DNA of 40,167 nt from a virus. A program made the translations under genes and the position numbers. The notes under the pieces are model-generated. The model did not search any database and was not told the origin of the DNA. It saw nothing but the letters and a program-made list of their open reading frames with translations. The DNA lies in UHGV virus genome UHGV-1350284. One strand, given 5' to 3'. How positions within the stretch are numbered: the first letter of the stretch is position 1; each line of letters begins with the position of its first letter. Shown one piece after another: positions 516 through 37,575 of the stretch.

Positions 516-534
516 TTACCAAAAAGGTAATAAT
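516..534 (+). promoter_or_regulatory. Operator palindrome TTACCAAAAAGGTAA fused to a TGGTAATAAT extended -10 element. Candidate repressor-controlled late promoter upstream of the gp6.7-like and portal genes.
   Basis: This 15-bp palindrome is identical to the OR site at 30708-30722. The right half-site continues into TAATAAT. Confidence 0.5.
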
Positions 535-18131: not shown

Positions 18132-18392
18132 TTATCTCAGATGCTGCCGCAACTGCATTGTGCAGAAATCCAGGTGTGTTTGCAGCTCCCGCATCGACAA
18201 CTGCGAGCTTGTCACATAGTTAACGAGCGCCACCAGTTCCGCCGCCGCACCGCTGACATCGTGGCCGTCTCGCTCCATCTCCCTGAGCAACTCCATCAGC
18301 TGTGATTTTACAACCAGGGATCTGACCCCTTCCGGGGTGTGAATACGATCTGCAAAACCTTCGTCGACAGGATACTGGTACCGCTCTGGCAT
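18132..18392 (-). CDS. Hypothetical 87-aa protein on the opposite strand inside the virion module. Candidate SOS-controlled antirepressor (inference).
   Basis: ATG at 18392 with GGGAG 8 nt upstream. An alternative ATG at 18407 lacks an RBS. A LexA-like box and promoter lie just upstream. Confidence 0.5.
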   Translation of the reverse strand: MPERYQYPVDEGFADRIHTPEGVRSLVVKSQLMELLREMERDGHDVSGAAAELVALVNYVTSSQLSMRELQTHLDFCTMQLRQHLR

Positions 18393-18410: not shown

Positions 18411-18430
18411 TACTGTATGCATATACATAT
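18411..18430. promoter_or_regulatory. Near-consensus LexA (SOS) box TACTGT-ATGCATAT-ACATAT with one half-site ACAT instead of ACAG. It overlaps the promoter of the 87-aa minus-strand gene.
   Basis: CTGT-N8-ACAT geometry with an AT-alternating spacer. 19 nt upstream of the ATG at 18392 on the minus strand. Confidence 0.35.
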
Positions 18431-18467: not shown

Positions 18468-18486
18468 TTACCCTTTAGGTAATAAT
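18468..18486 (+). promoter_or_regulatory. Operator palindrome TTACCCTTTAGGTAA fused to TAATAAT, in the divergent region before the tail-fiber gene
   Basis: Same TTACC-N5-GGTAA palindrome and GGTAATAAT element as at the immunity region. Confidence 0.45.
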
Positions 18487-18586: not shown

Positions 18587-20848
18587 ATGACGGTCTCAAC
18601 CGAAGTCGACCATAACGACTACACAGGGAACGGCGTTACCACATCTTTCCCGTACACGTTCCGTATCTTCAAGAAGTCAGATCTCACCGTCCAGGTAGCT
18701 GACCTTAACGAAAATATTACGGTGCTGACTCTGGATACCGATTACTCCGTTACCGGGGCTGGTACCTATTCTGGCGGGAATGTTGTGCTGATGTCACCGC
18801 TGGCCAACGGATGGCAGATTTCTATCTCGCGTGACCTTCCCGTTACCCAGGAGACTGACCTACGCAACCAGGGGAAGTTCTTCGCAGAGGTCCATGAGGA
18901 TGCGTTCGACAAGCTGACGATGCTGATACAGCAGTGCTTCGGCTTCCTTCGCCTGGCGCTACGCAAGCCATCATTTATCGCTAACTATTACGATGCGTTG
19001 AATAACCGCATTAGAAACCTGCGTGACCCGTCACAGGCGCAGGATGCTGCGACGAAGAGCTATGTTGATACAACCGGTGCAGAAAATTTAAGCCACACAT
19101 TACGCTTCCCCGAAGCAGTAGATGCGATGTTGAATGTTGACTTTCGGGCTAATTCCTTGCAGGGATATAATACGCATGGTAAGCCTATTCCTGTCTTTTC
19201 TATGACTGATACTGCAGATCTCGCTCTCAAATTAGCTTCTAATATTGGCCCTGGGTTGATTGGGTTTGACATAGATCAAATATACCCTGCGGATACTATT
19301 GGTAGAAAATTAAATAACGATTTCTATGTGTCTCAAAATCTACAGGATTATTATGACAAGCATGGTAATTGGGATGATGCTATTTTTGAGGCGCAATGCA
19401 ATATTGTAATCAAAAATTACTCACCAATAATCACGCTACCTGCAAAGGTCATGGTTTTCAATAAGCCAATTCTTGGTGGACGTGCTCTTGGTGATGCAAT
19501 TCACGCAGCACATCCAGAGCTTAATTTTTATAACCCATCAACAGACACTTATGCGAAGACGTGGCCATTAATGCTAATAGGTGCCAGAGCGAGATGGGCT
19601 GAAGGAATACTCTTTGAAGGCGTAGGTTCTCAGATAGTTTTCTCTGGGTGTGCAACGCAGCGCGACTACACATATCAGAATTCTGCTGCAATATATAGTG
19701 GGCCAACAAACCCATATGATAGGAAAACACAAAAGGAAGTTTCACAAATAAAATGGTTTGACACGATATACATGCAAGATGTGAACGTCAGATGCTTAAA
19801 CAAGGATTCATCACGCCTTGGGAAAGTGCACGGAATAGTATCCCTCAGTGGTAAATGCCTCCTTAAAAATATAGCAGTATATCAGTTTTACGGGGCAGGT
19901 ATTTACCTTGACTGGAACTTTGAACCTATTGTTGAAGGCTGCGCTGTTATTCAGTGTGGGCGTATGGCAGATGCCCTTCCGGGACCTGGGGTTACTGACG
20001 ATTTTATTACGCTAGGACGTACCGCCAAAGAGTATCAAACATATGGTGCTGTACATGTTGGATACTCAGCGGCAGGAACTGACAACTCAAACTTTGTGTC
20101 ATTCCGAGATCTTCATTTGGAAGATAATTATTACTGCGCTGCTGATGTTATAGTCTCAGGAAATTCATCACCAGTCAGAATTTATGATGTGCATTTTGAG
20201 TGCGACCCAATAGCAATTGGCGAGCTTTCACAAAAATGGGTTATCACATCAGGGCAATATGGCGTCAGGTATTTCGGGCAGGATACCGAGCCAGGCTTTA
20301 ATCCTGCAGTCACTCCATACACCACCAGGGCTGGATATACCACCTTAAATAATGTAGCTGGGTACAGTGCTAATTATGCTGGTTTTTATGGTTCTAGAGG
20401 TACTTCAGGATGCATAGCAGATAATTGTTTTTTCCCTAACGTTGGTAATGTGGAAGTTATCGGGCTTAATGCAAACGCATATTTTTATGCAAATAGTTGT
20501 TCATTTGGTAGTGTGGTGTTCAGCGGTGGTAACGCTAACCTTCAGCCTCTAAAATTAACTGGCTGCAGTGTTTCTTCTATAAGAATGAGTTATGCATATG
20601 GTTATAAATTAGTAAGCACAGAGGTATCTGGAGCCATAACGATTACTAGTGAATTAAGTAATCAGGCTGCTGGATGGCACCACTCCAACGTGAGTGCAGG
20701 AAGCATATCTGCCGTTATTAATTATGGTAGTGGAGACTTGTCTTTAACATCAACAAGCGTGGCCTCTAACATAGTTTGTTATCTAGGGAGCATAGAACTA
20801 CCACGTTATTCTTACTATAACGCTGTAACTCTTGGAGGTGCTTCATAA
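18587..20848 (+). CDS. Tail fiber/tailspike. N-terminal T7 gp17-like adaptor domain, C-terminal low-GC beta-helix (pectate-lyase/depolymerase-like) receptor-binding part.
   Basis: 753 aa. N-terminus ...NGVTTSFPYTF...TLDTDYSV... GC drops sharply from about 19060. Confidence 0.8.
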   Translation: MTVSTEVDHNDYTGNGVTTSFPYTFRIFKKSDLTVQVADLNENITVLTLDTDYSVTGAGTYSGGNVVLMSPLANGWQISISRDLPVTQETDLRNQGKFFAEVHEDAFDKLTMLIQQCFGFLRLALRKPSFIANYYDALNNRIRNLRDPSQAQDAATKSYVDTTGAENLSHTLRFPEAVDAMLNVDFRANSLQGYNTHGKPIPVFSMTDTADLALKLASNIGPGLIGFDIDQIYPADTIGRKLNNDFYVSQNLQDYYDKHGNWDDAIFEAQCNIVIKNYSPIITLPAKVMVFNKPILGGRALGDAIHAAHPELNFYNPSTDTYAKTWPLMLIGARARWAEGILFEGVGSQIVFSGCATQRDYTYQNSAAIYSGPTNPYDRKTQKEVSQIKWFDTIYMQDVNVRCLNKDSSRLGKVHGIVSLSGKCLLKNIAVYQFYGAGIYLDWNFEPIVEGCAVIQCGRMADALPGPGVTDDFITLGRTAKEYQTYGAVHVGYSAAGTDNSNFVSFRDLHLEDNYYCAADVIVSGNSSPVRIYDVHFECDPIAIGELSQKWVITSGQYGVRYFGQDTEPGFNPAVTPYTTRAGYTTLNNVAGYSANYAGFYGSRGTSGCIADNCFFPNVGNVEVIGLNANAYFYANSCSFGSVVFSGGNANLQPLKLTGCSVSSIRMSYAYGYKLVSTEVSGAITITSELSNQAAGWHHSNVSAGSISAVINYGSGDLSLTSTSVASNIVCYLGSIELPRYSYYNAVTLGGAS

Positions 20849-28623: not shown

Positions 28624-29691
28624 TCAGTACTTGATAGAGACTGCAGATACCTTCCCGCTGGCGATGGCGATCAGTGCCTTCTCTGCCATTTCCTGCGTAA
28701 GGCCGCTTTCAATCAGGTCTGCGATAGCCTGTCGATTGATGCTGCGGCGGTGCTCTTTATCAGCGGCCCGGCGCGCTTCTTCTTCCGCAATGCGCTTCTG
28801 CTCAGCCAGGCGCGCTGATTCAGCTTCCTCCTGACGGCGGCGCTCCGCTGCGATAGCAGCGTTCTTTTCCTGCTCAGCTTTTTCCGCAGCGGCTTTTGCT
28901 TCACGCTCTGCTTTCTGCTGGGCTTCAATTTTTTCGCGCTCTGCGCGTTCAGTTGCAGCTCTGGCTTCAGATTCACGGCGTGCAGCAGCATCAATTTCAG
29001 CCTGTGCCTTTTCCTCTGCATCACGCTTAGCTTGTTCAGCGGCTTCACGGCGGATATTCTCTTCACGCTCAAGGCGTGCTTTTTCTTCTGCCTCTTTGCG
29101 TAGGCGATCAAGCTCAGCGGCTTCATGTTCGCGCTTTTGCGCTATTACCAGCGACGCTTCCAGTTGCTGAATAGTTGAATCTTTAGCTACTCCCGCCTCT
29201 GCTGCGCGTTCCTGCCAGCTGTCATCCAGTACCACGGATTTAGCTTCCAGAATGCGCGCCTGAATATCAGCAGAAGGCAGGTAGTTACCGGCGGTGTCGA
29301 TCACGTCAGCCAGCGCACGCAAATCCACAAGGCGCTGCTGCAGTGCTTCGGTGCGTGCCTTTTCAGCATCTTCCCACTCGGTAAGAGGGCGGCGTACTTC
29401 ATCGCGCAGCTGATCGCATTCGGTGACGAAGCGGCGCAATTCAGCTTCAACCACTTTCGGCTGCTCCTTGAGGCGCTTCAGGTAATCCCTGCCAGGTTTC
29501 TCTACAGCAGTTTTGCTGCGTGATACCTGTGCGGCCAGCGATGCAATACGAGCCCGTCCCTTTGCAGTGCTCAGGTCAGGAACTTCGTTTACTCCGGCGC
29601 GGATCTTTTCCAGGAAGGAATCAAGCCCGTTCTCAACGTAAATTGCCGGCGCCATGTCTGGCGCGATTTCGATAATTGCTAAATCAGTCAC
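28624..29691 (-). CDS. Large coiled-coil protein with an E/A/R/K-rich central region (355 aa)
   Basis: GTG start. Globular N- and C-terminal ends flank a long charged helix. Confidence 0.6.
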   Translation of the reverse strand: MTDLAIIEIAPDMAPAIYVENGLDSFLEKIRAGVNEVPDLSTAKGRARIASLAAQVSRSKTAVEKPGRDYLKRLKEQPKVVEAELRRFVTECDQLRDEVRRPLTEWEDAEKARTEALQQRLVDLRALADVIDTAGNYLPSADIQARILEAKSVVLDDSWQERAAEAGVAKDSTIQQLEASLVIAQKREHEAAELDRLRKEAEEKARLEREENIRREAAEQAKRDAEEKAQAEIDAAARRESEARAATERAEREKIEAQQKAEREAKAAAEKAEQEKNAAIAAERRRQEEAESARLAEQKRIAEEEARRAADKEHRRSINRQAIADLIESGLTQEMAEKALIAIASGKVSAVSIKY

Positions 29692-29837: not shown

Positions 29838-29850
29838 ACACACCTCACTA

Positions 29851-30002
29851 TTACCATTTGGTAAATATCAGGGGTATGAGAAAACCACCCGTTGGTGGAT
29901 TTCTGGTAATTCAACGCCCTGTTGTTACCGTTAAGGTAATGATCTGATCAATTTATGGCTGTGTCAATAGATTTGACGAGGAAAAATTTACCATTTTGGT
30001 AA
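29851..30002. promoter_or_regulatory. OL-type operator cluster. Three TTACC-N4/5-GGTAA palindromes at 29851-29864, 29925-29939 and 29988-30002, plus the leftward promoter.
   Basis: TTACCATTTGGTAA, TTACCGTTAAGGTAA, TTACCATTTTGGTAA. Confidence 0.6.
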
Positions 30003-30055: not shown

Positions 30056-30637
30056 TTACTGGTTCTGGCTGACGATGAACTTGATGAAGGCGGCGATCTT
30101 GTTTTTCTCTTCCTGCGGCAGCCCGGCGTATTCATGGTGGTCATAGTCAATCAGACCAGCATTACCAGGCGGCAGGATCAGCTCATATGCATCGCGGCCG
30201 AACGCCCTGGCGATAGCCGACAGTACGCCAATGCTGGTGGAGCCTTCGCAGTTCAGGATGCGATTTACGGTCGCCTGGCCGATACCGGCCGCTTCCGAAA
30301 CCTTTTTCTCTGAGTTCAGATCCGGATGCTGTCCCATCCATACACCCAGGGTAAACGCTGCCTGCTTTTCCACACTCCATTCCTGCGGGTCGATAATCTC
30401 CGGCAGCGTCGGGGTATCTGACAGATGGTCGATATCCAGCCAGAAACGACCTTTCCCGGCGAACGACTCGATCTCGCGTGCCGCGTTAGCGCCGATATTT
30501 TTTGTCCCCTTGCTCCACCTGTTAACGAGGTTAGCTGATTTTTTGATTCTCTCGGCAAACCGGAGTTGCGTGTTATCGAAATCCTTCCGGATTATCTCAT
30601 TGAGGTTGTCGCGTCTTATGTCGTAGATGCTTTTCAT
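30056..30637 (-). CDS. Prophage repressor (cI analogue) with two XRE-type HTH domains and no S24 peptidase domain
   Basis: 193 aa. It is flanked by operator clusters and divergent from the cro-like gene. It appears leaderless (no SD sequence). Confidence 0.7.
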   Translation of the reverse strand: MKSIYDIRRDNLNEIIRKDFDNTQLRFAERIKKSANLVNRWSKGTKNIGANAAREIESFAGKGRFWLDIDHLSDTPTLPEIIDPQEWSVEKQAAFTLGVWMGQHPDLNSEKKVSEAAGIGQATVNRILNCEGSTSIGVLSAIARAFGRDAYELILPPGNAGLIDYDHHEYAGLPQEEKNKIAAFIKFIVSQNQ

Positions 30638-30690: not shown

Positions 30691-30757
30691 TTACCATAAA
30701 GGTAAACTTACCAAAAAGGTAACAGTCATTGATTTTTACACCAGATTGGTAATAATC
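30691..30757. promoter_or_regulatory. OR-type operator cluster (TTACCATAAAGGTAA 30691-30705, TTACCAAAAAGGTAA 30708-30722, degenerate third site) and pR extended -10 TTGGTAATAAT (30746-30757)
   Basis: Classic divergent immunity-region architecture between the repressor and cro-like genes. Confidence 0.6.
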
Positions 30758-30791: not shown

Positions 30792-31025
30792 ATGAGCGAT
30801 GTGCAAAAATTTGACTTCAAACGCTGCTGGCTCGACCTCTCTCCGGCTGAGCGAGAAGAGTTCGCAAGTGACGCCGGCACGACCAGCCACTACATTCAGG
30901 TTCACCTGACTGGCCGTAGAAGAATTCCACGTAAGCCTCTGTTAGAAAGACTGTTTAAAGCCTGCAAATCCCGTAAGTGGATCTCCGCAAAATCCGACCT
31001 GGTCCTCTGGTTCCACGAACGTTAA
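30792..31025 (+). CDS. Cro-like / YdaS-family HTH protein
   Basis: 77 aa. Motif ...HYIQVHLTGRRRIPRKPLLERL... Confidence 0.55.
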   Translation: MSDVQKFDFKRCWLDLSPAEREEFASDAGTTSHYIQVHLTGRRRIPRKPLLERLFKACKSRKWISAKSDLVLWFHER

Positions 31026-31150: not shown

Positions 31151-31375
31151 ATGCAGAAAGATGGCAAGTCGATGAAGCGAATTACCCAGCGAGAGGCCAT
31201 TGAGCAGGGGCTCACCCGGTTCTACACAGGGAAGACGTGTAAGCATGGCCACGACAGCGAGCGATACACCATCAGCGGCGAGTGCGTTACGTGCAATAAC
31301 GAGCGCGCGCGCCGGCAGGCGCAGATGAGATCAGAGCGTCTGAAAGCAGCCAGAAAGGCCAGGGAGGCAGCATGA
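31151..31375 (+). CDS. Small zinc-ribbon protein (motif FYTGKTCKHGH...CVTC)
   Basis: Conserved C-x4-H...C-x2-C. Basic C-terminus. Confidence 0.5.
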   Translation: MQKDGKSMKRITQREAIEQGLTRFYTGKTCKHGHDSERYTISGECVTCNNERARRQAQMRSERLKAARKAREAA

Positions 31376-32433
31376 CGCCTTCAGCTTACTACAACGAGAT
31401 CGACCCATTCGCGGCGCAGTGGCTGCGTAACCTCATAGCCGCCGGGCATATCGCCCCGGGCGAAGTTGACGAACGGAGTATTGAAGATGTCACACCTGAC
31501 GACCTCAGAGGATTTACCCAGTGCCACTTTTTCGCCGGGATTGGTGGATGGTCATATGCTTTGCGTCTGGCCGGATGGCCGGATAACAGACCGATTTGGA
31601 CAGGAAGTTGCCCATGCCAGCCTTTCTCCTCGACTGGCAAAGGCGCTGGGTTTGGTGACGACAGACATTTGTGGCCTGCCTTTGGCTGGCTTATCAAGCA
31701 GTGCCGACCTCAGCGCATCGCTGGCGAACAAGTTGCAGGAGGTCGTGCGGATCCATGGTTCGACCTTGTACAAAATGACGTGGAAAGAATGGGCTACGCC
31801 TTCGGGCTTACGCCGTTCCCGGCTGCGGGTGTCGGGTCGCCGAACGAACGAGAGCGGGCCTACTGGGTGGCCGACGCCAACCTGCAATACGAATCCACAG
31901 CCAGAAACGAAGCGCGGACTGCAGAACCTGTCCGGAGCGGTGAAATTATCTGGCTGGCAAACTCCGCTCGCGAACGACGCGACGGGGTCGACCCATTGCT
32001 ACAGCGGAAAGAACCCGGACGGTACTCCGAAAGTCTGCCTGAAATTACCGGGAACCGCTCTACTGACGGGTTGGGTAACTCCAACGTCACGCGACTGGAA
32101 GGATTCGTCGGGAATGACGGCGCAGCGGGACGGGAAAGATCGACTGGACCAGCTGCCGCGCCAGGCTTACACCTGCGGCCCCTTGAGGTTAACGGTTTTT
32201 GGCGAGATGCGGACTGGCTCTTATGTCGAGATGGCAAATGGCGTCCAGTTGAACCCGGCACATTCCCGCTGGTTGATGGGGCTGCCGCACGCATGGGACG
32301 AGTCGAGCCCGGGGTGGCAAGAGTGGCAAGCAGCAACCGCGTCGGCCGCCTGAAGGGTTACGGCAATGCAATAAACGCCCAGGCTGCTGCGGCTTTCATT
32401 CGCGCTTATATGGGGGTGCAGGATGGCCAGTAG
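31372..32433 (+). CDS. DNA (cytosine-5) methyltransferase
   Basis: Motifs I (FFAGIGG), IV (SCPCQPFS), VIII (GSPNERERAYWVA) and X (GNAINAQAA..FIRAY), all in one frame. Confidence 0.85.
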   Translation: MTPSAYYNEIDPFAAQWLRNLIAAGHIAPGEVDERSIEDVTPDDLRGFTQCHFFAGIGGWSYALRLAGWPDNRPIWTGSCPCQPFSSTGKGAGFGDDRHLWPAFGWLIKQCRPQRIAGEQVAGGRADPWFDLVQNDVERMGYAFGLTPFPAAGVGSPNERERAYWVADANLQYESTARNEARTAEPVRSGEIIWLANSARERRDGVDPLLQRKEPGRYSESLPEITGNRSTDGLGNSNVTRLEGFVGNDGAAGRERSTGPAAAPGLHLRPLEVNGFWRDADWLLCRDGKWRPVEPGTFPLVDGAAARMGRVEPGVARVASSNRVGRLKGYGNAINAQAAAAFIRAYMGVQDGQ

Positions 32434-33230: not shown

Positions 33231-33307
33231 TTACCAAAATGGTAATAAAATATGCGCAAGACTATTGATGTTGATCCGTTTATGGTTATAAATTACCAAT
33301 AAGGTAA
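33231..33307 (+). promoter_or_regulatory. Two operator palindromes (TTACCAAAATGGTAA 33231-33245, TTACCAATAAGGTAA 33293-33307) with GGTAATAAAAT -10-like elements, upstream of the VRR-NUC/nin operon
   Basis: AT-rich 125-bp intergenic region after the replication gene. Confidence 0.5.
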
Positions 33308-33312
33308 AAATC

Positions 33313-33660
33313 ATGCGAAAGACACTACAGGCACTTGGCCGGCTTAAAGCGGGCCAGATGAACAAAACCGAAACGGCGTATGCGCAAGAGCTTGAGCTGC
33401 GTAAGCGCTACGGGGAAATCGCCTGGTACCGGTTCGAAGGCATCAAGCTGCGTCTGGCTGACAACACGTTCTACACGCCTGACTTCGCCGTGATGCTGGC
33501 AAACGGCCAGATGGAATTGCATGAGGTGAAGGGGGGTTACTGGACCGACGATGCCAGGGTGAAAACCAAAGTCGCCGCCGACCAGTACCCATTCCGGATC
33601 ATCGGAGTAACGAAGCTCCCGGAAAAAGCCGGTGGCGGGTGGAAGGTCGAAGAGTTCTAA
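33313..33660 (+). CDS. VRR-NUC domain nuclease (PD-(D/E)xK)
   Basis: ...TPDFAV...ELHEVKG... motif. RBS AAGGT. Confidence 0.6.
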   Translation: MRKTLQALGRLKAGQMNKTETAYAQELELRKRYGEIAWYRFEGIKLRLADNTFYTPDFAVMLANGQMELHEVKGGYWTDDARVKTKVAADQYPFRIIGVTKLPEKAGGGWKVEEF

Positions 33661-33721
33661 AACAACGATCTTCATTGATATCAATTGAATCAATAAGTTA
33701 AACGGGTAAGCGGGGGTAAGT

Positions 33722-34260: not shown

Positions 34261-34514
34261 ATGACAACATCAACCACCCGTTACGCTACACAAAGGGTGA
34301 TATCGAGTGTATCGATGCGATTAAGGCCGCTACGGTGGGCAAAACAGGTATTGAGGCTGTAGACGTTGGTCACGTTATCCGTTACCTGTGGCGCTACGAA
34401 GAAAAAGATGGATTGGAAAGTGTGAAGAAAGCCGAATGGTATATTAAGCACCTGATTAAAGAACTGGAAGGTAAGCCCGCCGTTACGCAAGATAATTTTG
34501 GAGATCAAGCATGA
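34257..34514 (+). CDS. DUF3310-like phage protein
   Basis: ...DIECIDAIKAA...VIRYLWRY... pattern. Confidence 0.45.
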   Translation: MNDNINHPLRYTKGDIECIDAIKAATVGKTGIEAVDVGHVIRYLWRYEEKDGLESVKKAEWYIKHLIKELEGKPAVTQDNFGDQA

Positions 34515-35268: not shown

Positions 35269-36131
35269 CCAGCAAATTTAGCATCGACAACAGAGAGCTG
35301 CTTCAGAGAATCAGTAGCGGCGAGGCTGTTGTGGGAATTGATTTTGGTAATCTAATCGTCAGGGAGCTGGCTGCATTCAGGCTGGCCGCAATGGACAGCA
35401 GCGAGTCGGTTGAACTGCCTCTTGACTACCTGCAGGGACACAAAGACGGCCTGGAGTGGGCCTCCCAACTGGCGGAAGCCAGCCACCCTGAAACCGGAGA
35501 CTGGCTTTACGATGACCCTATCGAGCTGGCAAAAGCTATTCGCAAAGGTCCAGATATGCCGCCAGCGCAGCCGGTAGCGGACAGCGAGCCGGATCGCAAT
35601 CCTGTGCTGGCGTATGCCGACAGTTATCGCGATATGGCGAAACAAGGCGTCGAGTCAGTCCCAATATGGAGCGTCATTACCGACCTCGAGCGAAACATTG
35701 CTCCGCTCTATCGCCACGCGCAGCCAGCGCCGGAACGTGAGCAGGTACGCCGCGAGCACGCAGAGTGGTCACAGGCAACATTCGGAAATGTCGGCCCGGT
35801 TGGGCCGCTGAAGCACCTCAGCAAAGAAGCGCTGGAAGCCGCCGCCGAACCCGGCGACCTCAGCGAGTGGGCTGATATGCAGTTCCTGATGTGGGATGCC
35901 CAGCGCAGAGCGGGAATCACTGACGAGCAGATTACCCAGGCGATGATCGATAAGCTGGCGGTAAACAAGCAGCGCGAATGGCCGGAGCCGAAAGACGGTG
36001 AACCGCGGTTGCACATCAAAGGGCTGCCTGCACCGGTAGTAGAACGTGAGCCCATCGCGTGGCTCAATGACGCATATTTAGCTCGCGGCGTCGTTGACGG
36101 TGAGGCTGGTAGCGAAGATGCAGGCCCCTGA
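35265..36131 (+). CDS. Two-domain protein: unknown N-terminal domain plus C-terminal MazG-like nucleotide pyrophosphohydrolase (DUF550-type)
   Basis: C-terminal ...HLSKEALEAAAEPGDLSEWADMQFLMWDAQRRAGITDEQI...NKQREWPEP... Confidence 0.55.
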   Translation: MTSKFSIDNRELLQRISSGEAVVGIDFGNLIVRELAAFRLAAMDSSESVELPLDYLQGHKDGLEWASQLAEASHPETGDWLYDDPIELAKAIRKGPDMPPAQPVADSEPDRNPVLAYADSYRDMAKQGVESVPIWSVITDLERNIAPLYRHAQPAPEREQVRREHAEWSQATFGNVGPVGPLKHLSKEALEAAAEPGDLSEWADMQFLMWDAQRRAGITDEQITQAMIDKLAVNKQREWPEPKDGEPRLHIKGLPAPVVEREPIAWLNDAYLARGVVDGEAGSEDAGP

Positions 36132-37143: not shown

Positions 37144-37186
37144 TTGACTAAATCCTCGCATAATTATACTGTTTAAATATACAGTA
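37144..37186 (+). promoter_or_regulatory. SOS promoter: -35 TTGACT (37144-37149) and consensus-geometry LexA box TACTGTTTAAATATACAGTA (37167-37186) overlapping the -10
   Basis: Perfect CTGT-N8-ACAG with an AT-rich spacer. RBS GAGGT before the ATG at 37205. Confidence 0.7.
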
Positions 37187-37204: not shown

Positions 37205-37534
37205 ATGGGTTTTCCATCTCCAGCCAAAGACTACGTCGAGCGAACCCTATCCCCAAATATCCTGTGCCACATTGATGGTAATTGCCGGGTTATCGAAACC
37301 AGCGCCGGATACGCCGTTATCAATACCGCCATCAGGCCAAAGCAGGGGAGTAACATCCTGATATCCCTTTGTGGCCTCCTGCAGTTTGCAGTCGTTCGCG
37401 GGAAGGCAATCATCACCGATGACGGCGAAGCGATTGAAGGCGATGCGCTTGATGATGTCGACGTGAAATGGGTGCTGACATTCCTGGTTAATCGCGTCGA
37501 CTGGCAGAGAGAAGATGATATTCCGATCATGTAA
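37205..37534 (+). CDS. UmuD'-like protein (HumD-like). It starts at the GFPSPA motif, lacks the N-terminal RecA-cleavage tail, and its Ser nucleophile motif is degenerate.
   Basis: MGFPSPAKDYVERTLSPN... aligns with UmuD residues 25-45 (GFPSPAADYVEQRIDLN). SGDSM is replaced by SAGYA. Confidence 0.65.
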   Translation: MGFPSPAKDYVERTLSPNILCHIDGNCRVIETSAGYAVINTAIRPKQGSNILISLCGLLQFAVVRGKAIITDDGEAIEGDALDDVDVKWVLTFLVNRVDWQREDDIPIM

Positions 37535-37556: not shown

Positions 37557-37575
37557 TTACCGAAAGGGTAATTAT
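37557..37575 (+). promoter_or_regulatory. Operator palindrome TTACCGAAAGGGTAA (with extended flanks ATTATTACC...GGTAATTATTT) 20 nt upstream of TerS
   Basis: Same palindrome family. Candidate repressor-controlled packaging-gene promoter. Confidence 0.45.

Follow-up and report, generated by a model that had tools for sequence, protein, structure and literature searches.

How would a prophage be induced when its repressor carries no self-cleavage module? This question is raised by a gene at positions 30056..30637 (minus strand) of UHGV-1350284, a virus genome sequence of 40,167 nucleotides that was analysed over its full length (hereafter the window). A sequence-only reading had described the product, Rep, as a repressor with two XRE-type helix-turn-helix (HTH) units and no autocleavage (S24) domain, inactivated by small antirepressors under LexA control. 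By comparison with the Rep/Ant switch of phage SPC32H (Kim and Ryu 2013; Kim et al. 2016; PDB 5D50 and 5D4Z), we conclude that Rep is very probably the prophage maintenance repressor of an epsilon15-like Klebsiella podovirus (Uetakevirus), working like SPC32H Rep and inactivated by the antirepressor Ant. The same genes are found in epsilon15, phiV10, SPN1S, and ZX5. In the window the two genes are placed as follows:

30056..30637, minus strand: rep, lysogeny repressor of 193 aa plus stop codon with an ATG start, orthologue of SPC32H Rep
18132..18392, minus strand: ant, antirepressor of 86 aa, orthologue of SPC32H Ant, divergent from the tailspike gene

The 193-aa reading frame with its ATG start exists as the sequence-only reading gave it, and the orthology of both proteins was observed directly. 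Using tblastn, Rep aligned over its full length with SPC32H rep (63.5% identity) and with the epsilon15 repressor (64%); full-length identity was about 64% to the repressors of the Salmonella phages epsilon15, SPN1S, and SPC32H as a group, and about 45% to those of phiV10-type E. coli phages. Chain A of PDB 5D50 ("Repressor") matched residues 1-192 (phmmer, E=4.4e-76), and 5D4Z, which comprises SPC32H Rep residues 92-198, matched with E=7.7e-39. At the DNA level the rep locus was 95-98.5% identical to four Klebsiella phage records, in which an "XRE family transcriptional regulator" is 99.5-100% identical to Rep, and the nearest phage records to the window were Klebsiella Uetakevirus-type phages. 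Both halves of Rep fell in transcriptional regulator or repressor families of PHROGs.

Window Ant was 64% identical to SPC32H Ant (tblastn, E=2e-34) and matched PDB chain 5D50_E, "Anti-repressor protein" (E=5.9e-32). It also matched phrog_450 (unknown function) and, weakly, phrog_1760 "anti-repressor" (E=4e-6). In the SPC32H record ant is annotated at 19676..19936, divergent from the tailspike gene, and the window gene is syntenic with it. The ant start was placed at 18392 because an upstream in-frame ATG was not kept in relatives. In the E. coli Uetakevirus ZX5, overexpression of the anti-repressor lowered prophage titre about 1000-fold (PMC9782041).

When compared protein by protein, the window and SPC32H were syntenic gene for gene throughout, rep and ant occupying the same genome positions. 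The shared order is terminase, portal, structural genes, ant, tailspike, lysis, integrase, RecT/RecE, rep, cro-like gene, and replication. From this whole-window synteny, the window is an essentially complete Uetakevirus genome. Divergent from rep lies a small gene:

30792..31025, plus strand: cro-like small regulator (phrog_35 "transcriptional repressor", E=8.8e-9; 66% identity to SPC32H_042)

It is barely credible that Rep is instead some other XRE-family regulator, an antitoxin or accessory protein, with the true repressor encoded elsewhere. Such a role would accord with weak, sub-threshold matches to HigA antitoxin models and with one phage record that names a homologue "antidote protein VapI". 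Against this, rep is flanked by divergent early promoters that have paired operators, a placement like that of cI in lambdoid phages, and the SPC32H and epsilon15 records name its orthologues rep or repressor. ZX5 has a Rep homologue, 45% identical and annotated "repressor", and overexpression of the ZX5 repressor (ORF21) blocked lytic gene transcription, with lysis-gene transcription reduced by more than 99.9% and free phage abolished (PMC9782041). Elsewhere in the window no gene for an S24-type repressor came to notice, although no systematic search for one was made.

Domain architecture was resolved by Pfam searches and AlphaFold models, which gave the following layout:

30422..30637, minus strand: Rep residues 1-72, N-terminal XRE-fold HTH and putative DNA-binding domain (HTH helices 24-30 and 35-43; assigned from the model fold and PMC9986798)
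30380..30421, minus strand: Rep residues 73-86, flexible acidic linker (low model confidence; mean family identity 15%; net charge -1 to -6)
30173..30379, minus strand: Rep residues 87-155, second XRE-type HTH fold, equivalent of the middle dimerization domain (HTH_3; 5D4Z; PMC9986798)
30059..30172, minus strand: Rep residues 156-193, C-terminal module with an extended segment (160-166) and a helix (175-192), equivalent of the tetramerization and Ant-binding domain of SPC32H Rep (PMC9986798)

Two XRE-type HTH units are therefore present as claimed, the second by Pfam and the first by fold. They had been put at about residues 20-60 and 110-150, and the predicted HTH helices (24-30/35-43 and 110-117/121-128) fall close by. 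The proposed Pfam check bore out the second unit, which exceeds the gathering score, and the absence of Peptidase_S24, while the first unit stayed sub-threshold by sequence. HTH_3 scored 39.2 bits against a gathering score of 23 (E=7e-10), with two matching stretches of which the best covers residues 109-152; HTH_26 also matched. The N-terminal unit gave a sub-threshold YdaS_toxin/Cro-like match over residues 25-59 (E=0.0017), and the N-terminal domain alone matched HTH_3 with E=0.03, again sub-threshold. Across the N-terminal domains of a family of 10, YdaS matched all 10 and HTH_3 matched six, all below the cut-off. Profile-profile alignment laid the two HTH motifs of Rep on each other (E=2.9e-4, probability 40%).

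The fold of the N-terminal domain was clear from its model. Residues 1-75, modelled with a mean predicted local distance difference test score (pLDDT) of 92, superposed on 5D50_A with a template modelling (TM) score of 0.95 and a root-mean-square deviation of 1.1 Å; the next matches were NHTF, C.Esp1396I, and SinR (TM 0.7-0.8), lambda cI and 434 Cro (about 0.6), and HigA. The full-length model (pLDDT 82) had four N-terminal helices (4-19, 24-30, 35-43, 50-59), a disordered stretch within the linker (residues 74-80, pLDDT <50), five helices in the middle domain (89-103, 110-117, 121-128, 136-145, 151-154), and a C-terminal part in which an extended segment is followed by helices 167-171 and 175-192. 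Foldseek returned 5D50 and 5D4Z first and then XRE-fold proteins. All three modules of SPC32H Rep, together with the disordered linker, are thus recovered in the model; the window linker is 3 residues shorter than that of SPC32H. In the C-terminal module I163, Y165, L173, E176, F184, I185, and F187 are invariant in the family.

What the two HTH units do is a separate matter. In SPC32H Rep, as described in PMC9986798 (section 3.3), the N-terminal domain binds DNA, the middle domain dimerizes, and the C-terminal domain tetramerizes and binds Ant. Given these roles, the HTH of Rep that Pfam detects is, by analogy, the dimerization domain and not the DNA reader. The implied picture of Rep as a tandem DNA-binding protein was accordingly not upheld, for in the solved homologue the second HTH dimerizes and only the N-terminal one is described as reading DNA. 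The distribution of charge fits an N-terminal DNA reader: in 17 of 17 aligned family members the N-terminal domain carries a predicted net charge of +2 to +7, while the middle domain is near zero and the C-terminal module zero to negative across the family. As a caution for annotation, a Pfam HTH_3 match need not mark a DNA-binding domain, and in Rep Pfam misses the real DNA-binding head.

Could both HTH domains bind DNA, the middle one adding contacts to the operator or to flanking DNA? We regard this as quite improbable. It would explain why the middle domain passes Pfam HTH_3, why residues T123 and R126 of its second HTH helix do not vary, and why many proteins of roughly 150-175 aa start with a homologue of the middle domain plus the C-terminal module, the former presumably being their DNA-binding head. 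The middle domain of the solved homologue is described as a dimerization domain, however, with an N-terminal DNA-binding domain (PMC9986798), its near-zero net charge contrasts with the positive N-terminal domain, and the operators are simple 15-bp palindromes, fit for one pair of heads.

The absence of a self-cleavage module was confirmed. Peptidase_S24 gave no match to Rep in Pfam even at E<=10; the same search found S24 in distant relatives, so it would have caught this domain in Rep if present. The C-terminal half is helical, and the model as a whole is all-helical except for the short extended C-terminal segment. The accompanying statement that Rep has no Ala-Gly is literally untrue, because four such dipeptides occur (A60, A117, A160, A171). 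None of them is set in or adjoins an S24 fold, and the conclusion of no autocleavage therefore stands unchanged. SPC32H Rep itself is reportedly not cleaved.

In order to locate Rep operators, the window was scanned for TTACC-N5-GGTAA with <=1 mismatch. Nine exact sites were found, and 13 sites at <=1 mismatch against 0.62 expected. The operators discussed here, with one promoter-like site, are as follows:

30691..30722, unstranded: operator pair TTACCATAAAGGTAA and TTACCAAAAAGGTAA (starts 30691 and 30708), centres 17 bp apart, between rep and the cro-like gene
29925-29939 and 29988-30002, unstranded: operator pair, 63 bp apart, flanking the leftward promoter-like site
29967..29939, minus strand: leftward promoter-like site TTGACA-17-GATCAT between the operators at 29925 and 29988, layout aligning with SPC32H
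33231-33245 and 33293-33307, unstranded: operator pair, 62 bp apart, upstream of the gene at 33313
18468..18482, unstranded: single operator TTACCCTTTAGGTAA in the ant-tailspike intergenic region
516..530, unstranded: single exact operator, about 100 nt upstream of the SPC32H_004 homologue at 620
37557..37571, unstranded: single exact operator, just upstream of the small terminase gene

SPC32H carries the same operator sequence at syntenic places and with the same 17-bp and 62-bp spacings (pairs at 33604-33680, 34390-34421, and 35972-36048 of its record, L001, the last pair starting at 35972 and 36034). The sequence-only reading had left open whether a monomer or a dimer occupies each palindrome, a question already answered in the SPC32H system. 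According to PMC9638917, the SPC32H Rep tetramer binds DNA whereas dimer binding is weak, the two DNA-binding domains on one palindrome are proposed to come from different dimers of one tetramer, and one Ant tetramer binds two Rep dimers. The paired spacings in the window (17 bp in one pair and, in the others, 62-63 bp, which is roughly six helical turns) would suit one tetramer on two operators.

A third leftward operator, at about 29850-29870, has an N5 spacer in SPC32H (ATTACCATTTTGGTAAT) and an N4 spacer in the window (ATTACCATTTGGTAAAT). One base has been lost from the spacer, so this operator is probably impaired in the window.

In the window, SPC32H, epsilon15, and the other Klebsiella-clade loci, the operator nearest ant is 89-91 nt upstream of that gene; phiV10 and TL-2011b do not share it. 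In the epsilon15 GenBank record (L002), the homologous site (340-356) is annotated as a "repressor" binding site with an adjacent IHF site. Rep may therefore also control the ant or tailspike promoter through the operator at 18468-18482.

Between this operator and ant lies the site on which LexA control would depend:

18411..18430, unstranded: LexA-box-like site TACTGTATGCATATACATAT (plus strand), 38 nt upstream of ant, with one half canonical and the other reading CAT for CAG

According to a review, the lytic repressor of several Salmonella prophages is inhibited through protein-protein contact by an antirepressor that is produced once SOS induction has led LexA to cleave itself (PMC7380047, citing Shearwin 1998, Lemire 2011, and, on SPC32H, Kim and Ryu 2013). 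A canonical CTG-N10-CAG box is located 39 nt upstream of the placeable ant starts of SPC32H, epsilon15, phiV10, TL-2011b, BUCT554, Tyrion, and five prophages of other genera. The window box occupies the place that the canonical box has in SPC32H, epsilon15, and phiV10 and reads, in ant orientation, ATG-N10-CAG, with two spacer changes beyond the form typical of its clade. Of 96 loci examined, only one, which is rearranged, does not have the box at -37 to -39 relative to the start of ant. The claim of inactivation by an antirepressor held in part: an antirepressor orthologue is encoded in the same genome, while its LexA-controlled promoter is insecure given the ATG-N10-CAG box. The precedent named for it (Gifsy and 186) was superseded by a direct one, SPC32H Rep/Ant, with structures 5D50 and 5D4Z.

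The SPC32H and SPC32N records differ by one base inside the ant box, CTG to CTT. This SPC32N change reportedly gives constitutive Ant.

LexA boxes were scored with a Berg-von Hippel type measure, using our own matrix built from 18 E. coli boxes (PMC3009722), in which lower values are nearer consensus and only relative values carry meaning. E. coli boxes ranged from 0.3 to 9.3, and the window box lay at the weak end of this range. It was nonetheless the second-best LexA-like 20-mer of 40,148 in the window, with the next at 12.5. By sequence this is clearly a LexA-like box, though predicted to be a weak one; that LexA controls ant in this phage is plausible, but unproven.

Several observations weigh against an unmodified transfer of the SPC32H scheme. 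The window, five other Klebsiella loci, and one Superficieibacter prophage have the ATG-N10-CAG form at -37 to -38, and the form recurs in about 64 of 78 IMG/VR loci of close Ant relatives, 54 of which have exactly ATATGTATATATATACAGTA. The window box scored 9.3 and the Klebsiella-clade box 6.6, compared with 2.5 for SPC32H and 6.1 for the SPC32N mutant. A sigma-70 consensus scan of the ant strand picked up no ant promoter (scans around the other operators were likewise uninformative). Beyond the box, all of the mechanism is carried over from a 64%-identical homologue, and the SPC32H domain roles follow secondary descriptions in citing papers.

We consider somewhat unlikely a variant in which Rep and Ant act as in SPC32H and ant of the Klebsiella clade lies outside effective LexA control, induction being weakly coupled to SOS or independent of it. 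Silencing could then come, for example, from Rep at the operator 89 nt upstream or from a weak promoter. The change of ATG for CTG in one half-site is clade-wide (the window, L003-L006, L008, L010, and L019-L089 in our locus numbering), whereas sister clades keep CTG. By score the window box is no better than that of SPC32N, which is one base off SPC32H in the CTG/CAG triplet. Among the 78 IMG/VR loci, eight had a canonical SPC32H-like box, one more was SPC32H-like with an extra spacer base, and three had an unrelated left half (AGACCC) and kept the right half alone; a Rep operator stood at -87 to -92 in 75 of them. On the other side, the 14-bp inner palindrome TGTATATATATACA and the box position are conserved where the flanks have diverged, which argues that the site is still used. 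Working E. coli boxes with one non-CTG half exist (e.g., dinG with TTG; PMC3009722), and the window box ranks far above the background of the window.

Prophages with a degenerate ant box are stably carried in many genomes. Because prophages of this type are widespread, something keeps ant quiet; the candidates are Rep on the conserved -89 operator and whatever LexA binding is left. A more specific form, in which the switch has been rewired in the Klebsiella clade so that Rep, acting from the operator ~89 nt upstream, does most of the work of keeping Ant off and LexA contributes weakly, appears unlikely. If true, Rep and Ant would form a mutual-inhibition toggle whose induction threshold is low or independent of SOS. 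One paper on a Klebsiella Uetakevirus (PMC9505181) was set aside; it concerns a different 61-kb phage and is silent on LexA and mitomycin.

A second SOS-type site was noted in the window. A perfect LexA box, TACTGTTTAAATATACAGTA (37167-37186), precedes a 109-aa open reading frame (ORF; 37205..37534, plus strand) that begins MGFPSPAKDY, the N-terminal motif of processed UmuD' and HumD. The product matched phrog_3469 "UmuD-like" (E=5.5e-44) and NCBIfam HumD over residues 1-21 only, with no Pfam S24 match. SPC32H has no HumD-like gene, and 69 of 78 IMG/VR homologue loci have CTG-N10-CAG upstream, mostly at -38. The idea that this gene makes up for the weak ant box as another SOS input was rejected, because only 3 of 80 Ant-clade contigs carry it.

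In the scheme preferred here, that of SPC32H with Ant as the inactivator, the N-terminal HTH (residues 1-72) would read 15-bp TTACC-N5-GGTAA palindromes that flank or overlap the early promoters and precede several other transcription units. The second HTH-like domain (87-155) would dimerize Rep and would not read DNA, and the C-terminal module (156-193) would join two dimers into a DNA-binding tetramer and dock Ant. Tetramer binding, domain roles, and Ant action come by analogy from the SPC32H literature. Induction would proceed without RecA-stimulated self-cleavage, the 86-aa Ant binding Rep and freeing it from DNA. In relatives, LexA represses ant at a box overlapping the ant promoter, and DNA damage thus leads to LexA cleavage, Ant synthesis, and Rep inactivation. 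We infer the transfer of this scheme to the Klebsiella phage, and continued LexA binding with it, from the homologous system; the LexA step is its least certain link, since the ant box is degenerate.

The Rep/Ant system is already known and structurally characterized, and the non-canonical LexA box of the Klebsiella clade is the sole departure from it. The window phage shares with SPC32H the full-length Rep orthologue with the same three modules, the Ant orthologue, the operators with their paired spacings, and a LexA-type box at the same distance from ant. It differs in its Klebsiella host, in ATG for CTG in one ant-box half-site plus the two spacer changes, in the shorter Rep linker, and in the one leftward operator with N4 in place of N5.

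Rep resembles lambda cI, P22 C2, and LexA-type repressors in its N-terminal XRE-fold DNA-binding domain, in a gene placed between divergent early promoters, and in palindromic operators. Those proteins combine an HTH with Peptidase_S24; Rep is without S24 and therefore without RecA-stimulated self-cleavage, and by analogy it would oligomerize through an HTH-like dimerization domain and a short tetramerization module. With 186 CI/Tum and Gifsy/Fels-2 it has in common the logic by which a small LexA-controlled antirepressor inactivates a non-cleavable repressor (PMC7380047), although the repressor architecture is different and the Ant family appears distinct, judged from PHROG and PDB matches. 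Rco/Rap of the Bacillus plasmid pLS20 offers an N-terminal XRE DNA-binding domain, a C-terminal p53-like tetramerization domain, and relief by a partner protein; the C-terminal module of SPC32H Rep has been proposed to have this p53-like fold as in Rco (PMC9986798). Unlike Rep, Rco lacks the middle HTH-like dimerization domain and serves a plasmid conjugation switch with no SOS link.

Two further ORFs of the window, one on either side of the rep region, had no SPC32H counterpart by tblastn. The first encodes 355 aa (28624-29691, minus strand) with a long Glu/Ala/Arg/Lys-rich stretch and no family match. The second encodes 353 aa (31372-32433, plus strand) and contains FAGIGG and PCQPFS motifs typical of DNA cytosine-5 methyltransferases, as read from its sequence alone.

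The full three-module Rep is rare. At 90% identity it formed 36 clusters, and every named one was from Enterobacteriaceae; at 50% identity only 13 representatives fell below 1e-30, 12 of them full-length. Many proteins matched the N-terminal domain alone, and all eight that were checked (213-268 aa; P0087, P0088, P0090, P0091, P0115, P0150, P0172, and P0182) carry Peptidase_S24. One protein of 290 aa (P0092), on a 1.5-kb contig, has both HTH domains (33% identity over residues 1-153) followed by S24. Many proteins of 150-175 aa begin with a homologue of the Rep middle domain and C-terminal module (P0056, P0062, and P0068 are listed alongside). That the modules travel separately suggests an exchange in which a shared DNA-binding head carries either an autocleavage or an antirepressor-docking module, linking cleavable repressors with those under antirepressor control.

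For the biology of this Klebsiella prophage, the Rep/Ant assignment explains its likely route of induction, by an antirepressor and not by repressor cleavage. It is also of help in annotating the numerous K. pneumoniae prophages of this kind, in which these genes are labelled only "XRE family regulator" or "hypothetical protein". The non-canonical LexA box, finally, provides a small lead on how the induction threshold may be tuned in clinical Klebsiella lysogens.

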